This document shows positions 1,796 to 40,117 of a stretch of 64,000 bases of DNA, piece after piece; the first letter of the stretch is position 1, and the number at the start of each line of letters is the position of its first letter. Both the position numbers and the translations under genes were made by a program. The notes under the pieces are model-generated. The model did not search any database. It saw only the letters and a list, made by a program, of their open reading frames with translations, and was not told the origin of the DNA. The DNA is from a virus. The stretch spans positions 1 through 64,000 of the IMG/VR virus record IMGVR_UViG_3300043313_001099. One strand, given 5' to 3'.

Positions 1796-3289
1796 ATGAG
1801 TGGACAGACCCCGCAGACCTCCGTCGCGGTGCCCGACGCCCCTCCGGTGCTCGACCCCTCCACCCCTCCGGAGGGGTGGGCAGGAGACCTCGGCGCGCCG
1901 CGCCACGCTGCCACCCCCCAGACCTCCGAGGGCACCGACTACGTGACGACTCTCGTCCAGGGAGGAGTAGACCTCACCAAGCTCGGAGGGGCGCGGGTGA
2001 CACGCCGCGCCGTGGAGGGGGACCTCAGGCGGCGCGAGCGCCTCGCTGAGGTCCAGGCCGCTGACACTGCGCGCCGCCTCAAGGCCGAGCGCCGAGCAGC
2101 CCTCCGCGCCGAGCGCCGCGCCGCCCGCCAGGCCCGCGCCGACGCCCGCGCGGAGTGGGTCCGCGACCGCCTTGCCTCCGCCTCCCACAACTTCGCCGGC
2201 CTCGTCTCCTCCGGCATCTACACCGCTGCCCTGTCCGTGGCCGTGACCGGGCAGGCCACGATCGCCACCACCCGACACTGGCCGCTCGTGTTCGGCATCG
2301 GCATGGCCGTGTTCATCGAGGGCATGGCCGTCAGCATGGCGCTCACCGCCCACCAGCTCCGCCTGCGCGGCGAGCGCGCCCTCATCCCCCGCGCCCTGAC
2401 GTGGGTATTCGCCGGCCTGGCTGCCTTCATCAACTACGTCGCCCACTACCAGCAGGACCGAGTGCTGGCGTACGCCCTCGGCATGTCCAGCGTGGCCGCG
2501 ATCACTCTGTTCGAGATCCGGAGCGGTGCCCGCAACCGGCCCGCCCTGCGTGAGGCCGGGATGATCCCCGACCCGCCCGAGCAGTTCGGCTGGCGACGCT
2601 GGCTCCGGCACCCACTGGAGACCTTGGGCGCGTGGTCCGTGGACGTGCGTACCCGGGTCAGCCCGCGCGGTGCCGCCCTCCTCGCCAACGCCGAGGCCCG
2701 CCGGAGCTACCGCCGGGAAATCCGCGAGCACCGCCGCCTGGTGACCGCCGCCCGCCGCGCCGTCATCGTGGCCGCCGCCCGCCGCCCCGGCGCGGGTGTG
2801 GTCGAGCAGATCCGGGTGGCCACGGCAGCCCTCACGGCGGAGACCCCCGCCCCTCCGGCCCTCCCTGAGATTCCCGCCCGCCCGAGGGGTGGGGCACGCC
2901 CCTCCGGCCGCCAGGCCCCCCGCCCCCCGGCGCGCCTGGAGGTCACCCCTCCACCGGCAGCCCCTCCGGCGCTACCCCCCGCCCCTCCGGCCCCCAGCCG
3001 GGAGACCTCAGCCCTTCGGCCGCCGGAGGTCCCCGCCCTCCCGAACAAGCCCTCCGGGTCGGAGGTCTTGCCACCCCCCGGCCTGCATGTCGTCCGGGAG
3101 GGGGACCGCCCCATCCAGGCGAGGTCCATTGCGGACTACGCGACAGCAGTGATCGACAGGGCCGGCACCGACCCGACGTGGGGCCAGGTGAACGCCGCAC
3201 TGATCGCGCTGTTCCCCGAGCTGAAGCACGTCAAGTCCCGCACCGACCGGGTACTGGCCGAGGTCCGCCGCCGGAGGGATGCCGCATGA
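1796..3289 (+). CDS. DUF2637/SpdB-like membrane spread protein with coiled coil, about 4 TM helices and Pro-rich tail (start ATG 1796)
   Basis: Hydrophobic block followed by FGWRRWLRHPLETLGAW motif; first gene of the TraB operon. Confidence 0.7.
   Translation: MSGQTPQTSVAVPDAPPVLDPSTPPEGWAGDLGAPRHAATPQTSEGTDYVTTLVQGGVDLTKLGGARVTRRAVEGDLRRRERLAEVQAADTARRLKAERRAALRAERRAARQARADARAEWVRDRLASASHNFAGLVSSGIYTAALSVAVTGQATIATTRHWPLVFGIGMAVFIEGMAVSMALTAHQLRLRGERALIPRALTWVFAGLAAFINYVAHYQQDRVLAYALGMSSVAAITLFEIRSGARNRPALREAGMIPDPPEQFGWRRWLRHPLETLGAWSVDVRTRVSPRGAALLANAEARRSYRREIREHRRLVTAARRAVIVAAARRPGAGVVEQIRVATAALTAETPAPPALPEIPARPRGGARPSGRQAPRPPARLEVTPPPAAPPALPPAPPAPSRETSALRPPEVPALPNKPSGSEVLPPPGLHVVREGDRPIQARSIADYATAVIDRAGTDPTWGQVNAALIALFPELKHVKSRTDRVLAEVRRRRDAA
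2851..3057 (+). repeat. Cluster of CCCTCCGG octamer direct repeats (candidate clt / TraB recognition sites)
   Basis: Exact copies at 2851, 2900, 2962, 2983, 3050 (also 1840, 1864); variants at 2859, 2923, 2947, 3012, 3036. Confidence 0.5.
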
Positions 3290-3606
3290 CCGCCCTCCGC
3301 CGCCGGGTCCGCCTGTTCGAGGGTAAGCCCGACCTCCGCATCCACCCCGGCCTCCGCCCCCTCCCGGGGGACCGGCTCCGCCTGGAGCTCGACCGCAACG
3401 TGGACGAGACCAAGCCGACCGCCCTCCGCACCCTCCTGGAAGATCTCGTCCTCATCTACCGCACCGACAAGCTGAGCCGGCCGGACCTCCGCGTCGACCT
3501 CGACCGCTGGTCCCTCGTCGTGCACGTCCTCACCAACGCCAACGCCCCGGGCCGCATCCTGGCCCGCTGCATCATCCGCTCCGGCACCACCAAGGTCATC
3601 CGATGA
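3286..3606 (+). CDS. Hypothetical transfer-operon protein (start ATG 3286)
   Basis: ATGA coupling at both ends; typical high-GC codon usage. Confidence 0.65.
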   Translation: MTALRRRVRLFEGKPDLRIHPGLRPLPGDRLRLELDRNVDETKPTALRTLLEDLVLIYRTDKLSRPDLRVDLDRWSLVVHVLTNANAPGRILARCIIRSGTTKVIR

Positions 3607-3824
3607 TGCGCCGGGCGGAGCGCAGGAGACTGCGAATCAGCACCTACTGGCAGAAGCGCGTCAACGCCGCGAAGGAGGGGAGCCCGGAGTCACAGGCACA
3701 CGCCGAGTGGGACCGGCTCCGGGCAACGATCGTGGCCCTACCTGAAGAAGATCAACAGAAAGCCTGGACCACCACAGCGAAAGCCCTGGCCGAGACATAC
3801 GGCTGGATCGCACAAGGCGGCTGA
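3603..3824 (+). CDS. Hypothetical protein
   Basis: Coupled to the upstream gene; helical 73-aa product. Confidence 0.6.
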   Translation: MMRRAERRRLRISTYWQKRVNAAKEGSPESQAHAEWDRLRATIVALPEEDQQKAWTTTAKALAETYGWIAQGG

Positions 3825-3830
3825 GCAGCC

Positions 3831-3935
3831 AAATCACAAATCACAGTCACAACCGACCGGAGCCCATCCCCCGACAACCGACGCCCTACGCGCCAGCCGC
3901 GCGCACGCACGCGCGCACCCGTGCGCGCACGCGCG
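3831..3935 (+). repeat. Intergenic repeats: AAATCAC x2 plus AGTCAC, and GCGCGCAC x3 at 12-bp spacing
   Basis: Read directly: 3831-3850; GCGCGCAC at 3899, 3911, 3923. Confidence 0.55.
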
Positions 3936-3965
3936 AGACGCCAAGTGTAACTGGAGGTACCCCGC

Positions 3966-4424
3966 ATGTCCCTGTCACACGGTCACTGGATCGGCCCCGC
4001 CGTGTCGCTCACGGCCGGAGTCATCTGCCTCGTGCTCGCCGTACTCATCCGCACAACGGGGGAGGACCACTCCCCGCGCGCCGTGGTCGTCCTCCTCCTC
4101 ACCGGAGTGACCGGATTGCTGGGCACCCCGGTTGGCCACTGGATCCACGACGGCGTAAACAAGGGCAACCACGCCCTGTCCGAGGTCATCAGCCCCGTAG
4201 TCGGCCCGGTCACGCTGAGCGTGCTGGCCTTCGTTCCGGCCTACATCGTCGGCATCCACTGGCACCGGCACCGGATCAACGATCGGACGTACGTGGCAGC
4301 GATCAGCCTCCCGTTCCTGGTGACCCTCATTCCCGGCTGGGTCGGGGCGATCCTCACCCTGGCCGTGTTCGGCCCCGCCGACCTCCTCGGCTGGGCCGTC
4401 GTCACCCTGTTCAACCTGCACTGA
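3966..4424 (+). CDS. Integral membrane protein, Spd-like
   Basis: GGAGG RBS; about 4 hydrophobic helices; transfer-operon context. Confidence 0.7.
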   Translation: MSLSHGHWIGPAVSLTAGVICLVLAVLIRTTGEDHSPRAVVVLLLTGVTGLLGTPVGHWIHDGVNKGNHALSEVISPVVGPVTLSVLAFVPAYIVGIHWHRHRINDRTYVAAISLPFLVTLIPGWVGAILTLAVFGPADLLGWAVVTLFNLH

Positions 4425-4453
4425 CCCAACCACCGAAAGGGGGAGAGACCCCG

Positions 4454-5329
4454 ATGGAGTTCCTGATCTTCGGCCTGTGCCTGTGCCTGGCCATCGCCGC
4501 CGACCGCGCCGTCCACAAGGCCGTGGACCACGTACGCGGCGAGTACCGAGCCCGCAAGGAGCGGTACCTGGCCCGGGGAGACAACCACCCGCACCGCGTC
4601 GCCAGCGCACTGGGAGCGTTTGCCCGGGGCGTACCCGGCGCAGCCAGTGCGGTCCGCACCGGCTGGAGTGAGGGATGGGCGGAGGGCCGGCAGCGCTACG
4701 AGAACCGGGGCGCGCCGGCCAAGGAGGAGGCCCCGGCCCCTCGCCGCCGGCCACGCCCATCGCCCGCCGCCGAGCCGGCCCCGGCTCCGGCCCCGGCTCC
4801 GACCCCGGCTCCTGCGCCGCCATCCGAGCAGCCCGCCGCCGCGCCGGCACCGACGCCGGCACCGCCTACCCCCAAGCCGGCACCGCCGGTCACCATCCTG
4901 CCCGTCCACGCGCCGCACCTGCGGCTCGTGCCCAACACCGGAGGAGACAGCATGTCCATCGAGATCAACACCGTTGCCGATGTCCGCAGGGCCGTGCACG
5001 CCCACCGTGACCGCGCCACCGGCGAGCTGGAGGCCGCACAGACCGCGCTGACCCGCGCAACGGCGGACAACGCCGCAGCCATCAGCCTCCAGGAGCAGGC
5101 CAAGACGGTCCTGGACAAGGACGCCAACGCCCGCGCCGCCCTCGCCTCCCTGACGGAGGCCACGACCTCCGACATGCGGTACTGCGCCGCCAAGGTCACC
5201 GCCGCCGAGGCCAAGCTCGCCTCTTGCAACGCCGCCCTGGCCGCCCTGGCCCGCCACACCGCCCTGGAGGAGGGCGTCGCCTCCACCCCGGAGGCGTCCA
5301 GCCAGACCTCCGCCTACGCGCCGCAGTAA
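4454..5329 (+). CDS. Transfer accessory protein (N-terminal TM, Pro/Ala linker, C-terminal coiled coil)
   Basis: Purine-rich RBS; immediately upstream of traB. Confidence 0.65.
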   Translation: MEFLIFGLCLCLAIAADRAVHKAVDHVRGEYRARKERYLARGDNHPHRVASALGAFARGVPGAASAVRTGWSEGWAEGRQRYENRGAPAKEEAPAPRRRPRPSPAAEPAPAPAPAPTPAPAPPSEQPAAAPAPTPAPPTPKPAPPVTILPVHAPHLRLVPNTGGDSMSIEINTVADVRRAVHAHRDRATGELEAAQTALTRATADNAAAISLQEQAKTVLDKDANARAALASLTEATTSDMRYCAAKVTAAEAKLASCNAALAALARHTALEEGVASTPEASSQTSAYAPQ

Positions 5330-5409
5330 CCGGCCGCCGGCCGGGCGGCACGCACCGCTGCCCGGCCGGCCCACCAGCTCCACCGCTCCATCCCGATAGG
5401 AGAAGCCGC

Positions 5410-7485
5410 ATGTCCCGCTGGTCCCTGACCCGCACCAGTCTCCCCGGGCCTGGTACCGCGCCGTGGCACAAGCCCTCCCTCAGTCGGCGCGCCCGGCGCG
5501 CCGCCCGCCGCGCCGGCTGGAAGGTCACCCGCTGGTCCGTCCGCAAGGGCTGGAAGCACCGCGCCCGCCTCGCCCCCCTCTACTTCGCCGCCGTCCTCGG
5601 CGCAGCGTCCGAGGTGTGCCACCTGATCGGCAACGGCGGACGCACCATGCTCACCTTCGGACTCCTCGCCGGCCTGGCCGTGGCCGGCTGGCTGTGGCTC
5701 CGCATGAACCCGACCAAGCTGACCTGGCTTCCCCGCCGACACCGCCGCCCAAGCCGCACCCGCCTCATCAAGGCGGGCGCACTGTGGGCCGCAGCAACCA
5801 GCTACGCCACCCTCGCCGGCTGGGCCGGAATCGGCATCAGTAACCGCACCCTCGGCACCCTGATCTTCGGATCGATCGTCCTCGGCAGCGTCTACTGGTG
5901 GGACCGCCGCATCCGCCCCGTGCCCGTCATCGAGGAGCCCGCCGCGCCGGCCGTGGATGAGCGCCTGGCCGACTGGGACGAGTTCGTGGCGGCCGCGGGC
6001 AAGCTGGCCCCCGGGTCCACCCTCTCCGACCTGACCCCTATCGCGGACCCGCAGGACCCGGCCAAGGAAATCGGCTGGCAGGGCAGCGTGCTGGCCCGCA
6101 AGGGCTCCGCGTTCTCCGAGGTCACCGCGACCGGCAACCTGGAAAAGGTTGCCGGGGTGTGGGGCCGCACCCTGGCCGACGTGTCCCTGGTGCCCACGCC
6201 CGGCGAGTTCGGAGGCACCCGCGCCGGCCGCCTCCGCGTCTACACCGACAACCCGCTCCGCCGCGTCGTGGAATGGCCCGGCCCCGACCTCGACACCCTG
6301 GACGCCACGGGCGCTCTCCCCCTGGTGGTGCGCGGCTCCGGCGAGTTCGGCCTGTACCGCTTCCTGACTCCCGGCTCCGGCGCGACCCACTCCCTCATCT
6401 CCGGCGCGACCGGCTCCGGCAAGAGCTCCGCTATCAACGCCCTCCTCGACGCGGAAAAGCAGATCCAGTGGGCGTCGTCCGTGGTGATCGACCCGCAGCG
6501 CGGCCAGTCCCTCCCCGCCTGGCAGGACCAGGTATCCGTCTACGGCCGGACCGTCGATGAGGGCATGGACATCCTCAAGGTCATGCACGCGAGAATGCTC
6601 CAGCGGAACGAGGAGCTCTCCAGCTTGGAGTGGGACCACCCAACCGCCGGCCGGGTACGCGGCATCGGCTTCTTCGACCCCCGCGTCTACCCGATCCGTG
6701 ACCTGAACATGCCGCTGCTCTCCCTCACCATCGAGGAGGCGCACGCCCTGTTCGCGGCGTGGCCGGAGTCCGTGGGCCTGGTGCTTGAGATGGCGCTGAT
6801 GGGGCGCAAGTGCGGCATCAAGCTGCGCATCATCACCCAGGTCCCGCTGCTCAGCCAGCTCGGTGACTCCACCCCGCTCCGTGACTCCCTCGTCTCCGGC
6901 AACGTCCTGATCTTCCGCACCGGCAACCGGCTGACCAAGCAGGTCGCGTTGCCGGACGGCTTCTCCGTCGACCCCTTCAGCTTGCCCCGGGAATGGCCGG
7001 ACGGCTCCACCACCGCCGGCCTCTGCTACCTGATGGGTCCGGGTGCCACCGAGGAGCCGGCGCGCGCCATGTACCTCACCGATCCGTATGTGGTTGCCCG
7101 CGCCGGCACCATCACCCATGACCTGGTGTTCCCCGCCGCGCTGGCCGCCTACCGGAAGCGCCGCGAGGAGGAGGAGGAGCTCCTCCGCGCCGCCGAGGCC
7201 CAGCAGACGGCACAGAGCCAGCAGGCGCAGCCGGCGGAGGCCGCACAGGGCAAGGCCATCGACCGGGTGGAGGCGTACATCAACAAGGTCCGCCGGCCCG
7301 TCATCAACACCGTGATCGCGGAGGCCCTCGGCATCAAGGTCGGCACGGTCAACGAGTCCTGCCGCCGCCTGTTGCAGGCCGGCCGGATCTCCAGGGTGGA
7401 GGACCGGCCCGGCATGTGGACCTCCACCAGCTACGACCCGGCCGAGACGGACTCGGCCGAGGACGCCCACGAGATCGCCGCGTAA
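5410..7485 (+). CDS. traB: TraB-type FtsK/SpoIIIE conjugative DNA translocase (start ATG 5410)
   Basis: N-terminal TM helices, Walker A GATGSGKS, Walker B LTIEEAH, GRKCGI and ITQ motifs, C-terminal wHTH (IAEALGIKVGTVNESCRRLLQAGRI). Confidence 0.9.
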   Translation: MSRWSLTRTSLPGPGTAPWHKPSLSRRARRAARRAGWKVTRWSVRKGWKHRARLAPLYFAAVLGAASEVCHLIGNGGRTMLTFGLLAGLAVAGWLWLRMNPTKLTWLPRRHRRPSRTRLIKAGALWAAATSYATLAGWAGIGISNRTLGTLIFGSIVLGSVYWWDRRIRPVPVIEEPAAPAVDERLADWDEFVAAAGKLAPGSTLSDLTPIADPQDPAKEIGWQGSVLARKGSAFSEVTATGNLEKVAGVWGRTLADVSLVPTPGEFGGTRAGRLRVYTDNPLRRVVEWPGPDLDTLDATGALPLVVRGSGEFGLYRFLTPGSGATHSLISGATGSGKSSAINALLDAEKQIQWASSVVIDPQRGQSLPAWQDQVSVYGRTVDEGMDILKVMHARMLQRNEELSSLEWDHPTAGRVRGIGFFDPRVYPIRDLNMPLLSLTIEEAHALFAAWPESVGLVLEMALMGRKCGIKLRIITQVPLLSQLGDSTPLRDSLVSGNVLIFRTGNRLTKQVALPDGFSVDPFSLPREWPDGSTTAGLCYLMGPGATEEPARAMYLTDPYVVARAGTITHDLVFPAALAAYRKRREEEEELLRAAEAQQTAQSQQAQPAEAAQGKAIDRVEAYINKVRRPVINTVIAEALGIKVGTVNESCRRLLQAGRISRVEDRPGMWTSTSYDPAETDSAEDAHEIAA

Positions 7486-7495
7486 GGAGAACGCC

Positions 7496-8011
7496 GTGAG
7501 TCTGCCTAGCAAGATCGTCGTCGGGTTCGTTGGGGTGAGCGTGGGCGTCTCCCTGCTCGGCCACTCCGATACCGCACATCATGCCGGCGCGGGAGCGGCC
7601 CACCTTGCGGCCGGCATGGTCCTGACCGCCGCCGTTGGGGCGCTGGGTGGAGTCCCCGCCTGGCTGTACGTCCGAGACCGGAATGACCGGCTCTATGCGC
7701 GGGAGCGCGCCGAACTGGACGCCCGGGTGCGTGATATCCGCGCCCGCGCCGAGCGGGCGGACCGGCTACCGACTGCTGGCTACGACCCGGCCGAGCCGCG
7801 TACCCCCTGGTACTGCACTCTCAAGGCGCTCCTACCGTCCGGGGAGGCCATGAAGCTGCACGGAGGCGTGGTCGAAGCACCGGAGTCGCTGGACCGGCTG
7901 GCGGTGCAGGCCGCCGTGGTAGATGCGTTCGAGAGCGCCTACGGCCGGCCGGAGGGGGTGGCGTACACCTGCCACGCGACGCCGTTCGTGGGGGACCGCA
8001 TGGCGGTGTAG
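7496..8011 (+). CDS. Membrane-anchored hypothetical protein
   Basis: AAGGAG RBS; two N-terminal hydrophobic segments. Confidence 0.6.
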   Translation: MSLPSKIVVGFVGVSVGVSLLGHSDTAHHAGAGAAHLAAGMVLTAAVGALGGVPAWLYVRDRNDRLYARERAELDARVRDIRARAERADRLPTAGYDPAEPRTPWYCTLKALLPSGEAMKLHGGVVEAPESLDRLAVQAAVVDAFESAYGRPEGVAYTCHATPFVGDRMAV

Positions 8012-8023
8012 CCCTCCCCTCTA

Positions 8024-8064
8024 TTGACACGAGGTTGACCGAGAGGTAATCTGGTGTCAGTAAG
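8024..8064 (+). promoter_or_regulatory. Repeat promoter P1
   Basis: TTGACA cgaggttgaccgagagg TAATCT ggtgtca GTAAG. Confidence 0.85.
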
Positions 8065-8090
8065 TCACCCCCGACACAAGGGAGCACGCA

Positions 8091-8357
8091 ATGCCCGAGC
8101 TCAACGCCATGGAGATCCTCACCCGGAAGTTCCGCGACAACGACGGGATCACCCTCGCGCTCAGCGGCGTAGAGCAGCACTACCTCGTGATGGAGCTCGG
8201 CGGCGCACTGGAGAGCCTGTTCGGCGACGACGACACGTACACCCGAAAGCTCACCGGCCCCGCCCGCGACGAGGCCCAGTTTCTCGCCGGCCTCCTGACC
8301 CGACTCCTGGATGCTGCCGACGCGGCCTCCGACGAGCCGGACGAGATGCGCGTCTGA
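8091..8357 (+). CDS. Small acidic hypothetical protein
   Basis: Downstream of P1 with GGGAG RBS. Confidence 0.7.
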   Translation: MPELNAMEILTRKFRDNDGITLALSGVEQHYLVMELGGALESLFGDDDTYTRKLTGPARDEAQFLAGLLTRLLDAADAASDEPDEMRV

Positions 8358-8370
8358 TCCCCCGCCCGGT

Positions 8371-8404
8371 CGCCGCGCCCCTACTCCCGCCGAGGGGCGG
8401 GGCG
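8371..8404 (+). terminator. GC-rich hairpin between the P1 and P2 cassettes
   Basis: cgccgcgcccct ... aggggcggggcg (one mismatch). Confidence 0.5.
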
Positions 8405-8430
8405 CAGTGCAGATTCGCCAGTCTCCCCTA

Positions 8431-8459
8431 TTGACACGAGGTTAGCCGGGAGGTAACTT
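8431..8459 (+). promoter_or_regulatory. Repeat promoter P2 (leaderless, ATG 8467)
   Basis: TTGACA cgaggttagccgggagg TAACTT, then 7 nt to ATG. Confidence 0.85.
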
Positions 8460-8466
8460 AATGGGT

Positions 8467-8814
8467 ATGACATCCCCCGCCGCCACCGCCCACGCCACCC
8501 TCCTCCAGATGGTCGAGGCCACCGACACCGCCACGGCGCTCGCCCTGGCCGAGACACTGCGCGGCGCGACGCTCATCGCCGCCGAGGCGCTCATCGGCAG
8601 TGCGGTCGGCGGCCGAGTGTCCAGCCGCCGCCGGCACATCGCCAACTGGACCATCCTGAACGCCCTCAACTCCGCCGCCCTCCGGTTCTCCACCGCCGGA
8701 TGGGGCAGGTACATGGACGCGGCGGAGGCGGCGCACCGCACCGCCGACGCGGCCGAGTTCCTGGCCGGCCACCGGGCAACCCGCCGCGCCCTCCTGAACG
8801 GGGCGCAGGCATGA
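8467..8814 (+). CDS. Hypothetical protein
   Basis: Leaderless from P2; ATGA overlap with the next gene. Confidence 0.65.
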   Translation: MTSPAATAHATLLQMVEATDTATALALAETLRGATLIAAEALIGSAVGGRVSSRRRHIANWTILNALNSAALRFSTAGWGRYMDAAEAAHRTADAAEFLAGHRATRRALLNGAQA

Positions 8815-9047
8815 GCCGCGCCGAGACGGCCGAAAGCCTGGTCACCGCCGCCTTCGTAGTCGTCCGGCGCGCACGCAGCTCCGGATGCAGCAACCTGATC
8901 ACCAACCTGTGCATCCAGGAGATCGCGGAGACCCGCCGCATCCCCGGCGACGCCTACTCCCTGGCGACCTGCCGCCGCATCGCCCGGGAGCGCGCCCGCC
9001 TCATGGGAGAGGAGGAGCTCCTGGCCACCGAGATGTGGAAGCGCTGA
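8811..9047 (+). CDS. Hypothetical protein (MSRAETAESLV...)
   Basis: ATGA coupling. Confidence 0.6.
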   Translation: MSRAETAESLVTAAFVVVRRARSSGCSNLITNLCIQEIAETRRIPGDAYSLATCRRIARERARLMGEEELLATEMWKR

Positions 9048-9074
9048 CCGCACCAACCGACAAGGAGAACACGC

Positions 9075-9335
9075 ATGGCCCGCTGGAACTACACCCTCCA
9101 CCTCAAGGACTTCTTCCACGACGAGACCCTGACCTTCCCCGAATGGCGCGACCGCGTGGTGAACCGCGTGCGCAGCACCACCTGGTACAAGGCCACCAGC
9201 ACCGCCGGTGACCCGTGCCTGGCGGACATCGTGGGAGAGCTGGCCGACACCCAGGACCGGCGGGAATTCGATCAGGTGTTCGCCGCCGTCTACGACCAGG
9301 CCGACTACGACCGCTGCTGGATCGAGACCCGCTGA
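9075..9335 (+). CDS. Small phage protein
   Basis: AAGGAG RBS; W...L.LKD...FD.....YD.AD..RCWI pattern seen in small phage proteins. Confidence 0.7.
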   Translation: MARWNYTLHLKDFFHDETLTFPEWRDRVVNRVRSTTWYKATSTAGDPCLADIVGELADTQDRREFDQVFAAVYDQADYDRCWIETR

Positions 9336-9422
9336 CCGGACAGCCCGGCCGACCGGTCAGCCCTCCGATTCTGGCCGGTTCCCAGGCCCGCCCGGCCTAC
9401 CCCGACAGGAAGGATTCCGAGC

Positions 9423-9701
9423 ATGAGTAGTACCCCAACGTTCCCGGCAACCGGCAGATGCCGGTCCTGCCGCGCACCCCTCATCTGGGCCACCACCAGC
9501 AAGGGCAAGCTGATGCCCGTGGATGCCGAGCCGACCCCTGACGGCAACCTGATCCTCACCGCCTCCCCCGGTGGGGCCGCACCGACCGTAATCGTCCTCG
9601 CCTCCGCCGAGCTGCCCATCATCGAGGGCGAGCGGCGGAAGCCACACAAGGCCACCTGCCCGGACGCCGCCGCCTGGCAGACGCGCACCCGGACCGCCTG
9701 A
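9423..9701 (+). CDS. Zn-finger phage protein
   Basis: CRSCRAPLIW...GKLMPVDAEP..DGN...H.ATCP. Confidence 0.75.
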   Translation: MSSTPTFPATGRCRSCRAPLIWATTSKGKLMPVDAEPTPDGNLILTASPGGAAPTVIVLASAELPIIEGERRKPHKATCPDAAAWQTRTRTA

Positions 9702-9723
9702 TCACCGAGAGGACCGAGTAGAC

Positions 9724-9909
9724 GTGACGCGACTGCTGGTGACGCTGACCAACGGCGTTGAGCTCGTGAGTCGCCTGCCCGTCCACCTGGACGAGGAGGA
9801 GCTACTGGATGACCTGCGGCAGAACCGGCCGCTGATCATCCGGGGCAGGGATGGTGAGCGGACAATCGTGCCGGTCACGGCAATCCTGCACATCCGGCCG
9901 GCCGAGTAA
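9724..9909 (+). CDS. Hypothetical protein
   Basis: GAGG RBS; in the operon run. Confidence 0.5.
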   Translation: MTRLLVTLTNGVELVSRLPVHLDEEELLDDLRQNRPLIIRGRDGERTIVPVTAILHIRPAE

Positions 9910-9939
9910 TAGACCCCACGAAACCGTTTGGAGACACCG

Positions 9940-10203: not shown

Positions 10204-10456
10204 CCCGTTCATCCCTGTGGCGACGGAGCCCGTCACGCCGGACCGGCTCGGGGTTGGTGACAAGATCGAGGACCCGCGCGGAGACACCTACTTCGTACAC
10301 AGCGTGCACCGTGCCGGCGACGATTACGTGGTCGGCCTAGTCGAGTACCCGGGGCATCCGACCGTGTGGGACACCACCCTCCGCCCTCGGGACACCGTGA
10401 CCCGCATCCTGGTGGACGGGTCGCCCGCCCCCCGGATGCCCGGCTCCCACATCTGA
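10196..10456 (+). CDS. Small beta-rich hypothetical protein
   Basis: 8-bp overlap with the upstream gene. Confidence 0.55.
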   Translation: MADPFIPVATEPVTPDRLGVGDKIEDPRGDTYFVHSVHRAGDDYVVGLVEYPGHPTVWDTTLRPRDTVTRILVDGSPAPRMPGSHI

Positions 10457-33135: not shown

Positions 33136-33222
33136 GGGGCCTCCTCGGGCCTGGTGCCCCGGGGCGGGCACGACAAATGGCCGGGCTCCCCGGGGCGGGG
33201 GTCCGGTACTGGACGGGGATGG

Positions 33223-34299
33223 TCAGGCGGTGGCGCGCGCCCGGAGGTCACGGAGCGGGCGGACCTGGTAGGAGGGTCGCCAGTCGGCGGCCTCCCGGCG
33301 GACGGGGATGTCGTCCCAGCCGATCGCGCCGGAGCGGAGAAGCCCCAGGCGGGCCGGGCCCATGATCGCGGTCTGCTGGTCGAGGGGGAGCCGGTCGAAC
33401 CAGGCGCGGGCGTCGGGGATGGCGGGGGCGGTCTCCGGTACCCCGTGAATGCCGAGGTCGGCCCAGCTTTTTGTCTTGGGCATCCGGGAGCAGCGGCAGT
33501 TGGGGTGGCCGAGGGGGCCGGGGTCGGTCACGGGGTACTCGGTGCCGTTCTTCGCCAGGCAGGCCGGGCAGGTGCGCGGCCCCAGGTTGCACAGCCACAC
33601 CCAGCCGTCCAGGACATCGGCGTTGGCGGTCTGGCTGTACCGAGAGGCCGTGCGGTAGGCGTCGAGGGTCTCCGTCCGGGCAATCACCAAGGCGCGACTC
33701 AGCCCACCCTGGAGGGCTCCCTCGGTACGCGCCACGATCTCCCGGGCGGTAGCCCGTGGGCCCGAGCCTGTCGCCACGCCGGCCACAAGGGACCGCTTCA
33801 CCTGGTCGAGTACCGGGCCCGGAACCGCGCGGGCCTGCGACACGATCAGCGACTGCGACCGGGCAACCATGGAGTCCAGGGCGGACGGCAGGATCCGGGC
33901 GGCGAACCGGGCGGCGGCCTCCCCCTCCTGTGCGGCGGGAAGCTGCGAGGCGATGAGCCGTGGCTCGTGGTCGGCGGTTGCCCGGATCGCGGTACCGGCC
34001 GCGTCGGACACAGCAACGCCGGCCCGGCGGGAGAGCTGCGCGAGGGCCTGCTCGGCGGCCGTCAGGGCGGCCGCGAGGCGGTCCATGCGGGCCATCTCCC
34101 AGGGATGTGGCCAGCGGCCGAGGCGCGCTTGTGCTTCCACAAGGTCCTCGGCCGCTGCCTGCACTCGGCCCTCCAGCTCGGACCAGGCCAGCGCCCACGC
34201 GGAGGTGAGGCTACGAGTCGCCTCGTCTGCTGCGCCGCCCACGGTCACCCGTAGCTGCCGCAGGAGCCGCAGAGACTTCCGGTTCACCGCCACCGTCAC
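33223..34299 (-). CDS. Minor head protein (Mu gpF-like)
   Basis: IARTE, RTCPAC, HPNCRC motifs. Confidence 0.9.
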   Translation of the reverse strand: MTVAVNRKSLRLLRQLRVTVGGAADEATRSLTSAWALAWSELEGRVQAAAEDLVEAQARLGRWPHPWEMARMDRLAAALTAAEQALAQLSRRAGVAVSDAAGTAIRATADHEPRLIASQLPAAQEGEAAARFAARILPSALDSMVARSQSLIVSQARAVPGPVLDQVKRSLVAGVATGSGPRATAREIVARTEGALQGGLSRALVIARTETLDAYRTASRYSQTANADVLDGWVWLCNLGPRTCPACLAKNGTEYPVTDPGPLGHPNCRCSRMPKTKSWADLGIHGVPETAPAIPDARAWFDRLPLDQQTAIMGPARLGLLRSGAIGWDDIPVRREAADWRPSYQVRPLRDLRARATA

Positions 34300-35938
34300 C
34301 CTCCCCGTCGTCGGCTGAGGGGTCTTCGTCGTCCGGTGCCATGGCCCCGCCGGGGAGCGCGTCGGCCGGGTCAGCTCCGGCGCGGTGGGCGTTCAGGGCG
34401 TTCCGGCCGGCCGCGCCGATGTCCGGCGGGGCCGGGTACTGGAAGTTGCCATCCTCGTCTACGAGGCCGTCCAGGATGGCGTCCACGTCGCGGACACCGA
34501 GGGCCGTGAGAAGTAGTCGGGCCACTTCCTCCGGCGGCAGGACGCCCGTTGAGGCGGCCTCCACGATGGCCTTGACCAGGGTCTCCGGGTCGATGTCGTC
34601 CAGGGCGGGCCACACGAGGTCAATCGTGGTGTCGGTGTCGCCGGTCAGGGTGAGGGTTTCCTTGCCGGAGGCCGGATCACGCTTGATGACGCCCTTGAGG
34701 GCCCCCTGTGGTGCGCGGACCGACTCCACGATGACGTACCGGAGGAGCCGCTGGTAGGCGGCGGCCCACAGCTCCCGACGTTCCGACATCTCCAGCTCGG
34801 TCGGGCGGTCCAGGGTCTCGGCGGTGGCGCGGGCACCGCTCACCCCGGGGTCTCCGAGGAGCATCGTGACGGGGATGCCGAGGGCGGTCGCCACCATGGC
34901 GGCCAGGGGCCGGCCGGAGTCGGCGTCGATGGTCGCCCCCGACTTTGACACTGCCTCCAGGGTCACGTCTGGTCCGAGGAGGGCGGTCGCGCCGGCCCCG
35001 CCCGGCTCCCCGTTCGCGTCGAGCTGGCCGAGCTTCGACCGGGCCTGTGCTGCCTTGGAGCCGGACGCCGTGGCCTTCCAGGCGTACCGGGCGAGGGACC
35101 GCATGAGCCGGGCCCAGTCCTCCAGGAACTCGCGGTAGGCGCGCGCCCAGTCGACGGCGGCGTACGCATCGGGGATGCCCCGCTTCCAGCCGTCCGGCTC
35201 GTTCACCTTCAGGTGGAGGACGGGGGCGTCCCAGGCCACGGGGAAGCCTGCGATGCTGCGGGGCCGGGCGGCCGGCCGGTACCCGAGGGCGGGGTAGAAC
35301 CGCTCCAGGACCTCGTTCGTCGGTTCGCCGGTCGGACCGTAGGTGACGCGGGTCCAGCGGCGGCGGAAGAACCAGGTCTCCGCCGCGTCCTCCGGGTTGC
35401 GGATCACGTCCACGATGTCGTCGGCCGGCAGGGTGCGGACCTGCACGTCCCCGGTCAGGGGCCGGGTGAAGCAGGCGAGGAACACCTCGCCGTCCGTGCC
35501 GAGGGTCCGCTCCAGGCGGGTCCGGGCGGCCGGGCCGGTGACGGCGGCGGCGTTCAGGTCGTCGTCCAGAAACGCCGTGATGACGCCCTGCACGTCCTGC
35601 TCGCCGTTGCCCTTGGAGCCGTTGGCGCGGGCACTGATCTCCGCACCCTGGCCCCACACGTACGCGGACCGCAGAGCCAGCCCCCGCTTGAGCAGGGGAT
35701 TCTTGATCGAGTACAGGCGGCAGATGGCGCGGAGCTGCTTCAGCCCCTCCGGCGTGAACTCCTGCTCCGCCAGTGCGACGAACCGGGTCCAGCCGGCTTC
35801 CATGAGCTGTCGCTCCAGGCCAGCCACGGACTCCGCCAGGAGCAGGTTCGACTCTGCGGCCTGGCCGAGCTGCTCCCGGAGCTCCACGGTGCCGGCGGCG
35901 GACTCGGCCAGACGGGTGAGGAGGGCGGGCAGGCGCAC
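34211..35938 (-). CDS. Portal protein
   Basis: Follows TerL; NPLLKR, DGEVF, ATAETLDRP motifs. Confidence 0.85.
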   Translation of the reverse strand: MRLPALLTRLAESAAGTVELREQLGQAAESNLLLAESVAGLERQLMEAGWTRFVALAEQEFTPEGLKQLRAICRLYSIKNPLLKRGLALRSAYVWGQGAEISARANGSKGNGEQDVQGVITAFLDDDLNAAAVTGPAARTRLERTLGTDGEVFLACFTRPLTGDVQVRTLPADDIVDVIRNPEDAAETWFFRRRWTRVTYGPTGEPTNEVLERFYPALGYRPAARPRSIAGFPVAWDAPVLHLKVNEPDGWKRGIPDAYAAVDWARAYREFLEDWARLMRSLARYAWKATASGSKAAQARSKLGQLDANGEPGGAGATALLGPDVTLEAVSKSGATIDADSGRPLAAMVATALGIPVTMLLGDPGVSGARATAETLDRPTELEMSERRELWAAAYQRLLRYVIVESVRAPQGALKGVIKRDPASGKETLTLTGDTDTTIDLVWPALDDIDPETLVKAIVEAASTGVLPPEEVARLLLTALGVRDVDAILDGLVDEDGNFQYPAPPDIGAAGRNALNAHRAGADPADALPGGAMAPDDEDPSADDGEGDGGGEPEVSAAPAAATGDRGRRSRRGDS

Positions 35939-35951
35939 GGGGTACCTCCTC

Positions 35952-37478
35952 TCAGACCGGCGAAATGCCGAAGTCGTCGTCTGTGTCGTCCTCCTGGAGC
36001 GTCCCGTCGATGAGGGGGTCGAGGAGGATGCGGGCCAAGCCCTGGCTGAGGGTGTCCACTTGGTCGTCGTTGGCGGACCGGGGGAAGGCTGCGGCCTCGT
36101 TGATCAGGCCATCCACCCAGGGGGCCAGCTCCACGTCCGGCAGCCACACGTTCCCGGCCTGAACGAACGGGGAGACCGCGCGGGCCCTCGCCAGCTTGGA
36201 GCCCTCCGGCTCCACGGCGATCAGGCCGGAGACGCGGCGGCGGAGGGAGTTGATGACGGCCGGCCCGTTGGCCTTGTCCTCGATGTAGATGGCGAGGGCC
36301 TGCGGCCAGAGCGCCCGGACGCCGCGCACAGCCTGCACGGTGTCGGTGAACGACAGGCGACCGCGCACCTGGTGGAGGAGGTAGGCGTCGGCTCCGCGCC
36401 GGCCCCACACCTGCCCCACCACGAAGTCGGTCGACTCGGAGTCCTTGAACGCCATGTCCCAGGACTGGCAGATCTCATCGAAGCCGAGCCCCATGCGGGA
36501 GCCGTCCGCGCGCTCAATCCACTGCGCGGCGGTGTAGAACTTCCACCATTCCCGCTTGAACACGTCGCCGGAGTCGGGTGCGGGTGCGCCCTGGTACAGG
36601 GCGGTGAACACGCGCTCCCCAACGTCCTTGCGGATCTGCTCCCACTGCTGGACGGTGCGGCCCCGGGCGGACACCATCCACTCGCCAGGCTGCCGGCCGA
36701 GGGGGTCGGTCTGCCCTTTCTCCGGCCGGTGGTTGGCCTGCGCGGGGATGTTGATGAGCCGCCACTGGGAGTCGTCTTCCGCGAGCAGGCGGCCGGCGAG
36801 GTCGTCCTCGTGCCAGCGGGTCAGGATGATGATGACCGGCGCGCCGGGCGCGAGGCGGGTACGGGCAACGTTGGTCCACCAGTCCCACACGTTGTCGCGG
36901 TACGTCGCGGAGTCGGCCTGCTTCCTGTCCTTGATCGGGTCATCGATGATCAGGACATCAACGGCGCGGCCGGTGAGCGCGCCGCCGATGCCGGTGCAGT
37001 ACACGCCACCCCGGGAGCCGTTGAGCTGCCATTCCTGCGCGGCCGACGTGTCCGGCCGGACGGTCAGGCCGAGGGTCGGGTGTTCCGCGATGTCGTTCCG
37101 GATCGCACGCCCCCAGCGGCGGGCCACGCCGTGCTCGTAGGAGGCGATGGCGATGCGGAGCTCCGGGTTGCGGATGAGGAGCCACAGCGGCGTGCGCCGG
37201 GAGACCCGCTCCGACTTACCCTCCTGCGGCCCCATGGTGATGATGAGGCGCTCGCAGCGGCCCTCAGCTACGTCCACCAGGGCGGAGTCGATCAGGTCGA
37301 GGGCGGGGGTCTGGACGGTTCCGGCGTCGATCTCCTTGGCGAGGAGACCGGGGCTGGTGAACTTCTGCCGGGTGGCTTCACGGACCTTCGCTGCCAGCTT
37401 GTCCCGCAGGCGCTCTTTCTCCGCCACCTGCCAGTCGCGCCAGGAGGTCCTCGATCTCTTGGTCGAGGGAGTCGACAT
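35952..37478 (-). CDS. terL: Terminase large subunit
   Basis: GPQEGKS Walker A, LIIDDP Walker B, TRWHEDD, SWD, IEDKANG, DDQVD nuclease motifs. Confidence 0.95.
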   Translation of the reverse strand: MSTPSTKRSRTSWRDWQVAEKERLRDKLAAKVREATRQKFTSPGLLAKEIDAGTVQTPALDLIDSALVDVAEGRCERLIITMGPQEGKSERVSRRTPLWLLIRNPELRIAIASYEHGVARRWGRAIRNDIAEHPTLGLTVRPDTSAAQEWQLNGSRGGVYCTGIGGALTGRAVDVLIIDDPIKDRKQADSATYRDNVWDWWTNVARTRLAPGAPVIIILTRWHEDDLAGRLLAEDDSQWRLINIPAQANHRPEKGQTDPLGRQPGEWMVSARGRTVQQWEQIRKDVGERVFTALYQGAPAPDSGDVFKREWWKFYTAAQWIERADGSRMGLGFDEICQSWDMAFKDSESTDFVVGQVWGRRGADAYLLHQVRGRLSFTDTVQAVRGVRALWPQALAIYIEDKANGPAVINSLRRRVSGLIAVEPEGSKLARARAVSPFVQAGNVWLPDVELAPWVDGLINEAAAFPRSANDDQVDTLSQGLARILLDPLIDGTLQEDDTDDDFGISPV

Positions 37479-37896
37479 GCTCCACCTCCGCACGGACCCG
37501 CGTGGGCTGGTCCAGGCCGAGGAGCTTCGCCCGCCGTTCGCTGATCTTCAGGAGCGAGTCGATGGCCTTGAGGACCACTCCGTCATCGATGAGCGGCTTG
37601 CCGTCCTCCGGGTTGACGGCGATCTTGCCGGCGGCCGTGACGTGGACGTGCTTCTCATAGAGGACGCGCCAGGCGGAACGGGCCATCTCATCCAGGCGCT
37701 CGGCCTCCATCTGCCGGAGCTCATTGGCGGGCTCCAGGAGCATGTCGGCCAGTCCGCGCGCCACTGCCTCGTGAGCGGAGGCGACGGACCGGAACCCCAT
37801 CTGTGCGGCGATCTGCCGGTACGTGAGGTTGCGGCGGCGCAGGTCGACCGCCTGCGCGTCCTTCTGGATCTGTGCGACGGTGCGGCCCCGACTCAT
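37378..37896 (-). CDS. terS: Terminase small subunit
   Basis: HTH TYRQIA.QMG; RRAKLLGLD motif; overlaps the terL start. Confidence 0.85.
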   Translation of the reverse strand: MSRGRTVAQIQKDAQAVDLRRRNLTYRQIAAQMGFRSVASAHEAVARGLADMLLEPANELRQMEAERLDEMARSAWRVLYEKHVHVTAAGKIAVNPEDGKPLIDDGVVLKAIDSLLKISERRAKLLGLDQPTRVRAEVEHVDSLDQEIEDLLARLAGGGERAPAGQAGSEGP

Positions 37897-39329
37897 CCCC
37901 CGGTCCCCCTCTCGGCGTTCAGGCGGAGGAGGAGATCTCGCAGCTCGCCGTGCCGGTCGTGCCGGTAGCCGCCGGGGTACTCCATGTTGAGCTCCGCGTC
38001 CAGGGCCTCACGAAGCGTGGACTCCGGGAGCGACCGGGGCCGGCGGCAGACTGCCTGGATCGTGGAGGCGCTCGCCGCGAGGCTCAGCGACACGTCGTGG
38101 AAGTAGCGGTCAAGGAGCTCACGGAGTCCCTCGACGGTGTGGAAGTGTTGCAGGGTCCAGACGCCGGAGCGGAACGACGCGGAGAAAGCGTCCGGGTCGA
38201 GGAACTCGATGCGCCGTGCCCCGGCCGCCCTCATGTACGTCGAGTTGCTGTGCATCTGCGTGAACGCCCGATTCCGGGTGGCCGCGTAGAACGTGCCATC
38301 GGCGGCCGTGAGGGCGTTGCAGGACGCCAGCACCCACTCCTCGAACTGGAGCGAGGTCAGGGAGTTGAGCACGGAGTCCAGTACGACGTGCTGGTACAGG
38401 CCGTGGGCCTGGACGTCGGCCGCGATGTTGAGGAGCTGCCGGACGACGGCGCGCACGCTGATGCCGCGCGCACCGGCGGGCTGGAGATGCGGCTCGTAGG
38501 CGAAGGCGCGGTGCCCGGCGGCCAGGAGGCGGGCCACGTAGTCGCCGTGGCCGGCCCCGAAGTCAACGAGGCGCTCCCCGGGCTTGATGGCCGGGAGGAT
38601 GTACCCCTCGTACAGGGTGGATTTCTGGTCGCGGGACTTCGCGCCTCGGGCCTCGTCACGGCGGAGCCGGTTCATCTGGCAGAGGAGCTGGTTGTACGGC
38701 TTCACGCCTAGGGCGGTGTAGTCGTACACCCCGTAGTCGCGGGCCAGGGCGTCCAGGAAGCCCTGCACGTCTCCGGCGGGGAGGGTGTACGCCAGGACGG
38801 GTACGCGGGCCAGCTTGGCGGCCAGGGCGTAGTCGGCGTTGAGGATGATCCGGCCGTCGGGGTCGGCCACGACGGAGCCCCAGGGTCCGTACTGGACGAT
38901 CAGCTTCACGATCTCGCGGACGATCATGTTGCTGGACTTCCCGGTCACGTCGCCGTGCTCCACGGTGGAGTAGCCCACGGATAGGCCGGCGGGGATGTGG
39001 GCGGTGCCGCGTCCGGTCTCCACCGAATTGTGGAACAGGTTGAAACGGATCTCGTCGTGGAGCCGCACCTTGCGGGAGAGCAGGATGGCGGGGGTTGTGG
39101 CGACGCCGTTGGCCTTGAGGGCGCGGGTCCGCTGGTGCCCGGCAACCAACGTGCCGTCCGCGTTCAGGATGACCGGCTTGCACATGCCGTACCTGCTGAT
39201 CGACTCCCGGAGCGCGGCGAAGGCGTCGGGGGTGATGCGGCGCGGGTTGTATGAGGCGGGCTGGAGCAACTCGACGGGGAACGCCGGGTCGAATCGGATC
39301 TCAGTCTGCGCGGAGAGGGAGGCGGTCAC
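37893..39329 (-). CDS. ParB-like (two domains) plus SAM-dependent methyltransferase fusion
   Basis: YNPR, KPVILN.DGTLVAGHQR; second degenerate ParB-like unit; LVDFGAGHG, AYEP, VVLDSVLN. Confidence 0.8.
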   Translation of the reverse strand: MTASLSAQTEIRFDPAFPVELLQPASYNPRRITPDAFAALRESISRYGMCKPVILNADGTLVAGHQRTRALKANGVATTPAILLSRKVRLHDEIRFNLFHNSVETGRGTAHIPAGLSVGYSTVEHGDVTGKSSNMIVREIVKLIVQYGPWGSVVADPDGRIILNADYALAAKLARVPVLAYTLPAGDVQGFLDALARDYGVYDYTALGVKPYNQLLCQMNRLRRDEARGAKSRDQKSTLYEGYILPAIKPGERLVDFGAGHGDYVARLLAAGHRAFAYEPHLQPAGARGISVRAVVRQLLNIAADVQAHGLYQHVVLDSVLNSLTSLQFEEWVLASCNALTAADGTFYAATRNRAFTQMHSNSTYMRAAGARRIEFLDPDAFSASFRSGVWTLQHFHTVEGLRELLDRYFHDVSLSLAASASTIQAVCRRPRSLPESTLREALDAELNMEYPGGYRHDRHGELRDLLLRLNAERGTGG

Positions 39330-40117
39330 ATCGGCCGCCCTTCGCTGAGCCAGAGGAGGAAGCCCCAGTCCGTCGTGTGCTCGTGGAGGTACCAGCGGTA
39401 GCGGACCAGAAGGGCCTCGATCTCCTGGTCCGTGATGCGCAGGTTCATCTTGCCGATGCGGACCACGGTCGTCGTGTCGCCGGACGCGCCCTCGGACTGC
39501 TGCCGTTCGGGGGCGGCGAAGGCGGGCACGCCGGCCAGCTCCGGGTCGTCGTCAGCAGCCGGCGCGGCCGGGCCTGCGCCAGGCATGGGGGCCGGCTGGC
39601 CGGGGACCGGGGCGGGCGGGGTGGCCGGGGAGGCCGGCGCGGCTTCACGCGGGTCTGGGTCGCCCCAGCCGGCGTCATCCTGGCCCCGGTACAGGGCGCG
39701 GTGCGCCTCTGCCTCGTCGGCCGCCAGGAGCGCGGTCACGTCCTCCCCGGTGTACCCGGTTGCCGCGAAGTCGTCCGCGTCCCGGAGGAGCGCAACGAGG
39801 GCGGCGGTGTCGTAGTCAGCGAGGTCGGAGGAGCGGTTGTCAACCAGGGCGATGCGCTTGGCCTCAGCGTCGGTGCAGGTGATGACCTCGCAGCGGGCGG
39901 TGGTGGCGCGGCCGAGCTCGCAGATGGCCTGGTACGTGTTGTTGCCGACGAGGATGACCAGCGCGTCCCCGGTGTCCCGGACGGTGAGCGCCCGGTACTG
40001 CCCGTTGGCCGTGAGGCTGGCCTTGATGACGGGGATGTCGCCGCGTCGGGCGTTGCCGGGGAGCTGTGTGAGCTGGTCGAGGGGGATCTCGCGGGTCTCG
40101 ACGTAGATGGCGGCCAT
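39326..40117 (-). CDS. ParB/Srx-like N-terminal domain protein
   Basis: PGNARRGD...I.ASL..NGQY, ILVGN, RIALVDNR. Confidence 0.8.
   Translation of the reverse strand: MAAIYVETREIPLDQLTQLPGNARRGDIPVIKASLTANGQYRALTVRDTGDALVILVGNNTYQAICELGRATTARCEVITCTDAEAKRIALVDNRSSDLADYDTAALVALLRDADDFAATGYTGEDVTALLAADEAEAHRALYRGQDDAGWGDPDPREAAPASPATPPAPVPGQPAPMPGAGPAAPAADDDPELAGVPAFAAPERQQSEGASGDTTTVVRIGKMNLRITDQEIEALLVRYRWYLHEHTTDWGFLLWLSEGRPM

Follow-up and report, generated by a model that had tools for sequence, protein, structure and literature searches.

A plasmid-type TraB transfer cassette and a siphovirus virion operon on one self-closed 75.2-kb unit from soil metagenomes

The DNA considered here, the window, is a stretch of 64,000 nucleotides comprising bases 1-64000 of a single 75,461-bp IMG/VR contig (IMGVR_UViG_3300043313_001099), which the database classes as "linear," with a CheckV completeness of 92%; the record has a GC content of 67-76%, and all of the public runs that contain the sequence are soil metagenomes. 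Genes were called by third-position GC and annotated with Pfam, PHROGs, and NCBIfam. The window carries a transfer cassette (1361-8011, roughly 1.4-8.0 kb) that encodes a DUF2637 protein, Spd-like membrane proteins, a TraB-like translocase, and, in divergent orientation, a MerR-type regulator. Convergent with it on the minus strand (40117 to 10776) is a complete siphovirus virion and lysis operon. The two modules share one 75.2-kb circular or concatemeric molecule. This molecule is fairly probably the closed, 75,208-bp genome of a tailed phage of the siphovirus type with a Streptomyces-like soil actinomycete as its host; a plasmid-type cassette for the transfer of double-stranded DNA (dsDNA) would be an integral part of it, lying between the early replication and regulation genes and the point at which the late operon ends, and would be used to pump the phage DNA between hyphae.

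Transfer cassette and virion operon

An earlier annotation of the window from its letters only, the sequence-only reading, had placed a transfer operon of DUF2637/Spd-like genes and a 691-residue FtsK/SpoIIIE protein in this region, and Pfam, alignment, structural modeling, and transmembrane (TM) calls bear it out at the positions listed in Table 1. All of the cassette open reading frames (ORFs) are intact, with values of GC at third codon positions (GC3) of 0.87-0.96. The GC content of the cassette is 72.2%, versus 70.9-71.0% elsewhere, and codon usage is uniform (r of at least 0.97 for relative synonymous codon usage, RSCU), which in DNA of such high GC content has little weight as evidence. 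No cassette protein falls in any PHROG family.

The ATPase motifs of the TraB-like protein are intact. In an alignment with 17 homologues, a Walker A motif (G332-xxGxGKS339), the sequence DPQRGQS (residues 361-367), a Walker B motif (TIEEAH, about 440-444), and RKCGIKLR..TQ (466-477) can be identified, and G332, G337-K338-S339, D361-P362-Q363, E443, and R466-K467 are invariant in the 18 family members. A profile of this TraB family matches the FtsK motor in the Protein Data Bank (2iuu, E = 8e-7), and Foldseek comparisons of an AlphaFold2 model (pLDDT 74.8) match the FtsK motor (E = 1e-11, TM(target) score of about 0.6) and the conjugation coupling protein TcpA (1e-10). Five helices are predicted in the model at residues 24-167, and the hydrophobic segment 79-97 alone passes the Kyte-Doolittle threshold; an N-terminal membrane anchor, as is characteristic of TraB proteins, is therefore predicted. 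The model has a winged-helix topology at 612-672, and there is a weak match to HTH_24 (E = 0.002) together with matches of the profile to winged-helix chains (E of about 1e-3). The sole named NCBIfam match is to NF041214, plasmid_TraB (E = 2e-13), and single-sequence Pfam searches with the 691-residue protein give only sub-threshold P-loop matches. The protein represents a divergent branch that is TraB-like by fold and context, and not an equivalog by score.

The DUF2637 protein, whose gene lies within the traB operon, has an Arg-rich helical N terminus, at least two strong TM segments, and a Pro-rich linker, an architecture that appears to be SpdB2-like. SpdB2 is an integral membrane protein that forms oligomers and has a coiled coil at its N terminus and four TM helices, and its gene lies beside traB. 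Homologues of the DUF2637 protein are encoded by 17 actinomycete plasmids and by the Streptomyces phages Hiyaa, Keanu, Spocter, and Galactica. Homologues of the 152-residue membrane protein are found directly 5' of TraB-like genes at loci L006-L014, L062-L064, L067, and L087, and those of the 291-residue protein have the same location at loci L008-L014 and L063. The MerR-type gene occupies the position of the GntR regulator, TraR/KorA, of the plasmids. The intergenic region between it and the DUF2637 gene (1630-1796) contains repeated AAGTCGCGCA motifs, and a promoter-like element, TTGTCA-N17-CACACT, is situated about 7 nucleotides 5' of the ATG at 1796, so that it would yield a near-leaderless transcript. 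A scan of the 1-11-kb region for consensus promoters and terminators was uninformative.

The virion and lysis operon is complete from the terminase to the lysis genes, as the sequence-only reading had described it, and the PHROG matches include those of TerL (phrog_38, 2e-105), the portal (8e-119), and the tape measure protein (2e-84). TerL is 55-57% identical to homologues in Brevibacterium and Arthrobacter phages. The stop codon of the TraB-like gene is separated from the end of this operon by 3.29 kb, which hold only small ORFs and one strong terminator. The sharing of a promoter-like motif by the regions next to the two modules also stood up: TTGACACGAGGTT occurs nine times in the window versus 0.43 expected, including the copies at 8024, 8431, and 40146, and is present on both sides of the cassette.

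Table 1. Features of the window and of the closed unit (positions in the window; E values follow family names)
Feature	Position	Strand	Basis and remarks
Junction segment	1-70	+	Identical to 75209-75278; marks closure of the unit; phage DNA, not RecX-like in the recX frame
73-residue Cys/His-rich ORF	35-256	+	Coupled in translation, in the closed form, to the gene that ends the replication block (74908-75246); not assigned to a Pfam or PHROG family
Extracytoplasmic function (ECF)-type sigma-70 family factor	253-852	+	Pfam Sigma70_r2 2e-12; TIGR02937 3e-18; phrog_1740
XRE/HTH_31 regulator, repressor-like	852-1364	+	Pfam HTH_31 7e-9; phrog_2328 (transcriptional repressor)
MerR/excisionase-type helix-turn-helix (HTH) regulator, divergent from the transfer operon	1361-1630	-	Pfam MerR_1 2e-10; phrog_66 (weak)
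DUF2637 integral membrane protein	1796 (or 1601)-3289	+	PF10935 6e-7, exceeds cut-off; TM segments
106-residue cassette ORF	3286-3606	+	GC3 0.96; no Pfam or PHROG family
GCGCGCAC x4 repeat cluster, intergenic, within the cassette	3899-3945		Corrected p of about 9e-5; weak candidate cis site (clt or operator)
152-residue polytopic membrane protein, Spd-like	3966-4424	+	4-5 TM segments
291-residue protein	4454-5329	+	N-terminal TM anchor, Pro/Ala-rich spacer, coiled coil
TraB-like FtsK-family dsDNA translocase, 691 residues	5410-7485	+	Helical membrane region at the N terminus, then the motor domain, with a winged helix at the C terminus
171-residue protein coupled to traB	7496-8011	+	2 TM segments
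Two promoter-family copies (TTGACACGAGGTT-N-GTAAyCT)	8024-8478	+	Would drive small genes at 8091-9335
Bidirectional terminator hairpin between the convergent operons	10710-10765		17-nucleotide perfect arms; ΔG -76 kcal/mol; z = -8.7
Lysis end of late operon	10776-15142	-	Endolysin 14033-15142 (phrog_3084, 2e-23); 2-TM holin-like ORF 11962-12318; accessory ORFs
Tail module	15150-24570	-	Minor tail/Dit/Tal-like; tape measure 20055-22991; chaperones 22995-23959; major tail 24058-24570; PHROG
Head/packaging module, with connectors	24624-37493	-	Ala-rich repeat ORF 26139-28808; major capsid protein (MCP, HK97-type) 29762-30976; protease 31351-33171; MuF 33223-34299; PHROG
Portal (head/packaging module)	34211-35938	-	PHROG
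TerL (head/packaging module)	35952-37493	-	PHROG
Two ParB-like (ParBc nuclease-type) genes, head of late operon	37893-40117	-	phrog_723 1e-34; phrog_5475 2e-69
Promoter-family copy	40146-40158	+	Divergent from the start of the late operon
Small serine recombinase (resolvase/invertase type, C-terminal HTH)	42240-42863	-	PF00239 4e-41; 207 residues (frame 212 residues)

Closure of the 75.2-kb unit

Bases 1-70 of the contig are 100% identical over 70 bp to bases 75209-75278, and the final 183 bp of the contig diverge; a test for exact terminal repeats at the contig ends was negative but misleading, because the repeat is offset by these 183 bp. Closure was examined with Logan contigs from four soil runs, which were placed on the right end of the contig. 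A 162-bp Logan contig from run X1 (record 6) spans 75149-75278 and then reads into TGGTGCTCCGGACACGGCAAGGACCTGTAC, and a 357-bp contig from run X4 (record 23) spans 75071-75278 and continues with the same TGGTGCTCCGGACACGGCAAGGACCTGTAC, which corresponds to window positions 71-100. The two contigs bridge position 75278 to position 71, and the 75,208-bp unit is therefore self-closed in DNA from two independent samples. The sequence-only reading had proposed that the full contig be inspected for circularity or terminal repeats, and the 70-bp repeat and the bridging contigs are the outcome of that inspection. It should be recognized that replicative concatemers, or virion DNA that is circularly permuted and packaged by the headful, would be expected to give such a closed junction just as well.

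In the closed form, a plus-strand block runs unbroken and translationally coupled from 60 kb to 75278 and from 71 to 9.3 kb, in the order replication and recombination genes, the 73-residue ORF, the sigma factor, the XRE gene, and the transfer cassette. The 60-75-kb part of the block encodes DUF2786, DUF3560, AAA_24, UvrD-type helicase, RusA, and SSB proteins. Thirty-one ORFs are without a Pfam family, of which 15 lie in the right arm (40-59.3 kb), 11 at 60-75 kb, and 5 at 8.8-13.2 kb.

Origin and recurrence of the cassette

In tblastn searches (E ≤ 1e-5), homologues of the TraB-like protein were found on 134 actinomycete plasmids versus no INPHARED phage, with identities to the plasmid proteins of 30-36%. 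The linear Streptomyces plasmids NZ_CP119148 and NZ_CP109321 have a syntenic cassette that encodes, in order, a DUF2637 protein, a small ORF, proteins of about 155, about 400, and 128 residues, and a TraB-like protein. At the nucleotide level, window positions 1-12000 gave zero matches to plasmids, and positions 14001-39000 matched phages only in a 49-bp patch of TerL. The protein comparisons identify the cassette as a Tra/Spd module of the plasmid or AICE (actinomycete integrative and conjugative element) type. With the TraB-Spd systems of pSVH1 and pIJ101 (PMC4447253), it shares an FtsK-like translocase, here with a predicted membrane anchor and a putative C-terminal DNA-recognition domain, translationally coupled genes for small membrane (Spd) proteins, and a divergent regulator; it differs from them in that the regulator is of the MerR and not the GntR type, the host replicon is a phage, and the TraB-like protein falls under the family cut-offs.

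Single-protein scans of viral contigs with the TraB-like and portal proteins returned nothing, and an alignment-based scan was needed; this identified 34 IMG/VR contigs with a member of this TraB family. Four of these have direct terminal repeats, 19 are called proviruses, 20 have a tyrosine integrase, 8 have a DUF2637 gene, and 14 have an HK97-type MCP by Pfam; at loci L077, L089, L090, and L094 the TraB-family gene is accompanied by homologues of the tape measure, tail, or lysis genes of the present phage. The co-occurrence of TraB and TerL with conserved synteny, for which the sequence-only reading had suggested a search, is seen in G435, a provirus in an isolate genome (IMGVR_UViG_2561511115_000002) that alone among the 34 has a collinear virion module, and 3 more of the contigs have this TerL. 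Identities with G435 are 62% for TerL, 61% for the portal, 67% for the MCP, and 65% for SSB, with ranges of 48-67% for the head and packaging genes and 32-49% for the tail genes. In G435, a TraB-family gene with 30% identity occupies the same convergent position, after genes for a 518-residue protein with three TM segments and a 130-residue protein with four, but no similarity is detectable for the remaining cassette genes, and G435 has a tyrosine integrase at its end. The module therefore recurs at the same genomic position, but conservation is much higher in the virion genes than in the cassette, which indicates that the association is positional and mosaic and not strictly coevolved. The view that the window represents one coevolved replicon is accordingly retained as regards the single replicon, whereas coevolution is too strong a term for virion genes at 32-67% identity beside a TraB at 30% and other cassette genes without detectable similarity.

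The same layout is found in PhiNon1 of Nonomuraea gerenzanensis (NZ_LT559120.1, 59,257 bp, circular), in which genes for a DUF2637 protein, a 396-residue protein, and a TraB-like protein (654 residues) are convergent with an endolysin/tail/head/TerL operon, as here, but the only proteins in common are TraB (27% identity) and two small ones. PhiNon1 has been described as a plasmid-phage element that integrates at tRNA-Val through a 50-bp attB, in a paper that is silent on TraB and conjugation (PMC5431353). The Streptomyces plasmid-phage pZL12/phiZL12 (Zhong et al. 2010, J Bacteriol 192:3747), pSLE1, and Streptomyces plasmids of about 85-94 kb likewise combine in one replicon the entire virion operon of a tailed phage and a tra locus of the actinomycete type. 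As cited in two later papers, conjugal transfer of pZL12 requires the major tra gene and two neighbors (PMC3583192, PMC4487206), and pZL12 and pSLE1 carry repA and parAB (PMC4487206). The pZL12-type backbone is unrelated to that of the present element, for which no ParA was found. The TerL of the present element shares only 33-43% identity, over part of the length, with those of the 85-94-kb plasmids. Hiyaa (NC_048139), Keanu, Spocter, and Galactica are isolated, plaque-forming phages with a DUF2637-like protein 29-30% identical to that encoded at 1796-3289 (for Hiyaa 29%, or 30.4% over a shorter alignment); in Hiyaa, a protein of 698 residues annotated as FtsK/SpoIIIE-like is encoded 2 kb 3' of the DUF2637 gene, but it belongs to another branch, with no hmmsearch match to the present TraB family, and the genome is of a different type.

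These comparisons bear on the novelty implied by the sequence-only reading, which took phage-plasmids to be generally nonconjugative. That premise is not supported in view of the proven tra locus of pZL12, the same layout in PhiNon1, and the DUF2637 and FtsK-like genes of Hiyaa. Since pZL12 already demonstrated the principle in 2010 and elements with this pattern are common, the present element adds one more example rather than a discovery; it is of a known but little-studied kind, whose novelty was overstated, as was its designation as a phage-plasmid, which is considered below.

Relatives of individual genes also occur in other settings. Homologues of the sigma factor (29-31% identity) are encoded 5' of TraB-like genes at loci L031-L045, and homologues of the DUF2637 protein (34-47%) at four loci, L025, L031, L036, and L041; these loci are carried by Micromonospora contigs of 60-90 kb and by one complete Micromonospora plasmid of 70 kb. 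The present TerL was looked for and not found in five genomes that have TraB-like loci of Micromonospora, Salinispora, or S. albidus, including the Micromonospora loci L036, L040, and L041 and the Salinispora locus L032; their TraB loci look like those of ordinary plasmids that share the sigma factor, the DUF2637 protein, and one UvrD helicase with the phage. A sigma factor thus repeatedly accompanies transfer modules of this type. On the 79.7-kb Salinispora mooreana scaffold with L032, a UvrD-type helicase 49% identical to the product of the 67948-69807 gene is encoded less than 10 kb from the TraB-like gene, and the scaffold holds a second TraB-like copy (L044).

Maintenance and proposed function

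The small serine recombinase at 42240-42863, which has NCBIfam matches to an XisF N-terminal domain and to Mpi-like proteins, is the only recombinase in the record, and no tyrosine integrase (PF00589) or large serine integrase (PF07508, PF13408) was found across it. A split large serine integrase 3' of the resolvase domain was considered and rejected, as PF07508 and PF13408 are absent. No att repeat bounds the 1.4-8-kb block, and the sole terminal repeat encloses the whole 75.2-kb phage. AICEs are units of 9-24 kb, with the order Int-Xis-Rep-TraB-Spd, that are bounded by an integrase and att sites. In the present case no integrase and no repeats flank the cassette and promoter copies lie on both sides of it, and it is therefore not a separate, att-bounded AICE; with closure in two runs, this agrees with the earlier view that the two modules, with no integrase or att repeat between them, belong to one replicon.

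The designation as a phage-plasmid fares less well, since no ParA and no recognizable Rep were found, the ParB-like pair lies at TerL, and the contig ends in a junction between phage and recX. The location of the ParB-like genes directly 5' of TerL means that they are no evidence of a partition system, and only the small resolvase and a set of TTGCCAT arrays could be candidates for a role in stability. Each of the five arrays (44702, 44908, 56250, 62814, and 62989) opens with the palindrome ATGGCAATTTGCCAT, after which TTGCCAT heptads recur in phase, with 9 matches on both strands versus 0.08 expected, and they may represent operator, iteron, or centromere-like sites.

The final 183 bp of the contig (75279-75461) match a single conserved locus, the 3' end of recX, with 78-88% identity in 333 of 401 Streptomyces genomes, and the ORFs at the matched locus encode RecX (...RLRRLAGMLARKGYPEGLALRVV...). 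The join between phage and host sequence is immediately 5' of the GMLARKGY codons, and the overlap with the host sites is only 2-6 bp, which suggests a crossover by a serine recombinase or an illegitimate join. The 70-bp segment does not read as RecX and is therefore phage DNA, so that it was rejected as an att core in recX. In the sequence at 75209-75461 (L001:15209-15461), a 60-residue ORF, VSLRPPHQRTVG+MLARKGYPPGLAIRVV..., runs in frame into the last helical repeat of a Streptomyces-type recX.

The junction raises the possibility, tentative but the strongest of the alternatives, that the element is not a plasmid but a chromosomally integrated prophage that inserts at the 3' end of recX and whose TraB cassette acts after excision, in the manner of an AICE. 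The recX match and the short overlap at the join are consistent with this, as are Logan contigs of the recX flank that begin at 75276/75277 in runs X1 and X3 and the frequency of tyrosine integrases (20 of 34) and provirus calls (19 of 34) among the TraB-bearing IMG/VR contigs. However, the closed 75.2-kb unit has no tyrosine or large serine integrase, only the 207-residue protein of the resolvase/invertase type; no Logan contig bridges phage and recX, attL and attB were likewise not recovered, and exact-pattern scans of metagenome and viral contigs for the recX flank and the 70-bp segment found nothing. The junction could reflect a rare illegitimate event or an assembly tip. If integration does occur, the RecX encoded at attL would be missing its C-terminal repeat, and a mini-RecX driven by the phage would arise at attR. 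A combined scheme is improbable, in which an integrase-less circular episome in the hyphae, spread by TraB conjugation and by virions, also inserts at the 3' end of recX, by means of the resolvase-type recombinase (with a 2-6-bp crossover) or another enzyme, replaces the last helical repeat of RecX, an inhibitor of RecA, and so rewires the control of SOS and induction in the host. The sequence data are compatible with upkeep of the prophage either as an episome or by integration at recX.

From the plasmid-type cassette on a phage molecule we infer a conjugative function. In the proposed mechanism, the genome would reside as circular dsDNA in the hypha, where the MerR, XRE, and ECF-sigma regulators would release expression of the cassette. 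TraB would form a membrane-anchored hexamer, the winged helix of which would recognize a putative clt repeat on the phage DNA, and would pump unprocessed dsDNA into a contacted hypha; the SpdB2-like DUF2637 protein and the other membrane proteins would then carry the DNA through septal cross-walls. The result would be a capsid-free spread in addition to that by virions.

A cassette of this kind may instead serve the phage in ways other than conjugation between mycelia, by moving replicating DNA between hyphal compartments to give a larger productive zone per infection, by excluding or competing with resident plasmids and AICEs, or by mobilizing host DNA. This is rather unlikely, but actinophage homologues of SpdB2 have been proposed to help spread phage DNA (Thoma et al. 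2015, PMC4447253), a DUF2637 gene and an FtsK-like gene occur in isolated phages, Hiyaa among them, and a search of the element for genes of plasmid maintenance was negative. On the other hand, TraB-type pumps with a C-terminal winged helix are sufficient as a single component for transfer of plasmids between mycelia (PMC4447253), and the tra locus of pZL12 mediates conjugal transfer (PMC3583192); the two uses are inseparable by sequence alone. It is very improbable that the record is a composite or artefact, whether a separate AICE or plasmid fragment misassembled with or beside a prophage or a decaying, functionless cargo, because, although the assembly is metagenomic, IMG/VR calls it linear, and the cassette has plasmid ancestry and a slightly higher GC content, the junction is closed in two independent runs, the cassette has no att site or integrase around it and promoter copies on both sides, its ORFs and catalytic motifs are intact with codon usage like that of the rest (weak evidence), and the same arrangement is present in G435, PhiNon1, and IMG/VR genomes that are complete by terminal repeats.

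Several points weigh against the use of the cassette for hyphal transfer of an episomal phage genome. For this element, transfer, pock formation, and binding to clt are predictions from sequence. The TraB-like protein scores below the curated cut-offs (20.4 versus 24 bits for PF01580 and 49.6 versus 800 bits for NF041214), and a search of the record for a classical GntR regulator of the kil-kor type (TraR/KorA) did not find one. No convincing clt was found, only weak 8-mer clusters (3899-3945 and 2851-3060), one of which is within a Pro-rich coding repeat. The record has no ParA-type ATPase (PF13614, PF01656) and no recognizable plasmid Rep among the named families, although many ORFs at 60-75 kb have no family. 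The coverage in public runs is only about 3x and comes from Logan contigs only, and a closed junction alone is no proof of an episome.

If hyphal transfer by the phage is correct, phages of filamentous actinomycetes gain a second, capsid-free route in which dsDNA is pumped between hyphae, and this would change the view of host range, of how prophages spread, and of the flow of genes among soil bacteria that produce antibiotics. Standard tools would then undercount transfer-capable, phage-like elements, as is illustrated by PhiNon1 and pSLE1, both of which are "non-mobilizable" by MOB-suite typing in PLSDB. The present record adds a lineage that has neither a standard integrase nor partition genes, evidence of the closed form taken directly from metagenomes, and, in G435, a clean relative with the module at a conserved place in the genome.

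Two further features of the window may be mentioned. The minus-strand ORF at 26139-28808 encodes 889 residues in a 76%-GC stretch with degenerate 60-nucleotide (20-residue) Ala/Gly-rich repeats; only its C-terminal 95 residues match phage families (phrog_18316), and G435 holds only the conserved end (59% identity over 107 residues). It may be an expandable head or neck fiber-like protein. Between the start of the late operon and the right arm, ARAGORN reports a tRNA-like gene (40766-40835, minus strand) with a four-base anticodon (catg) and an undetermined identity.

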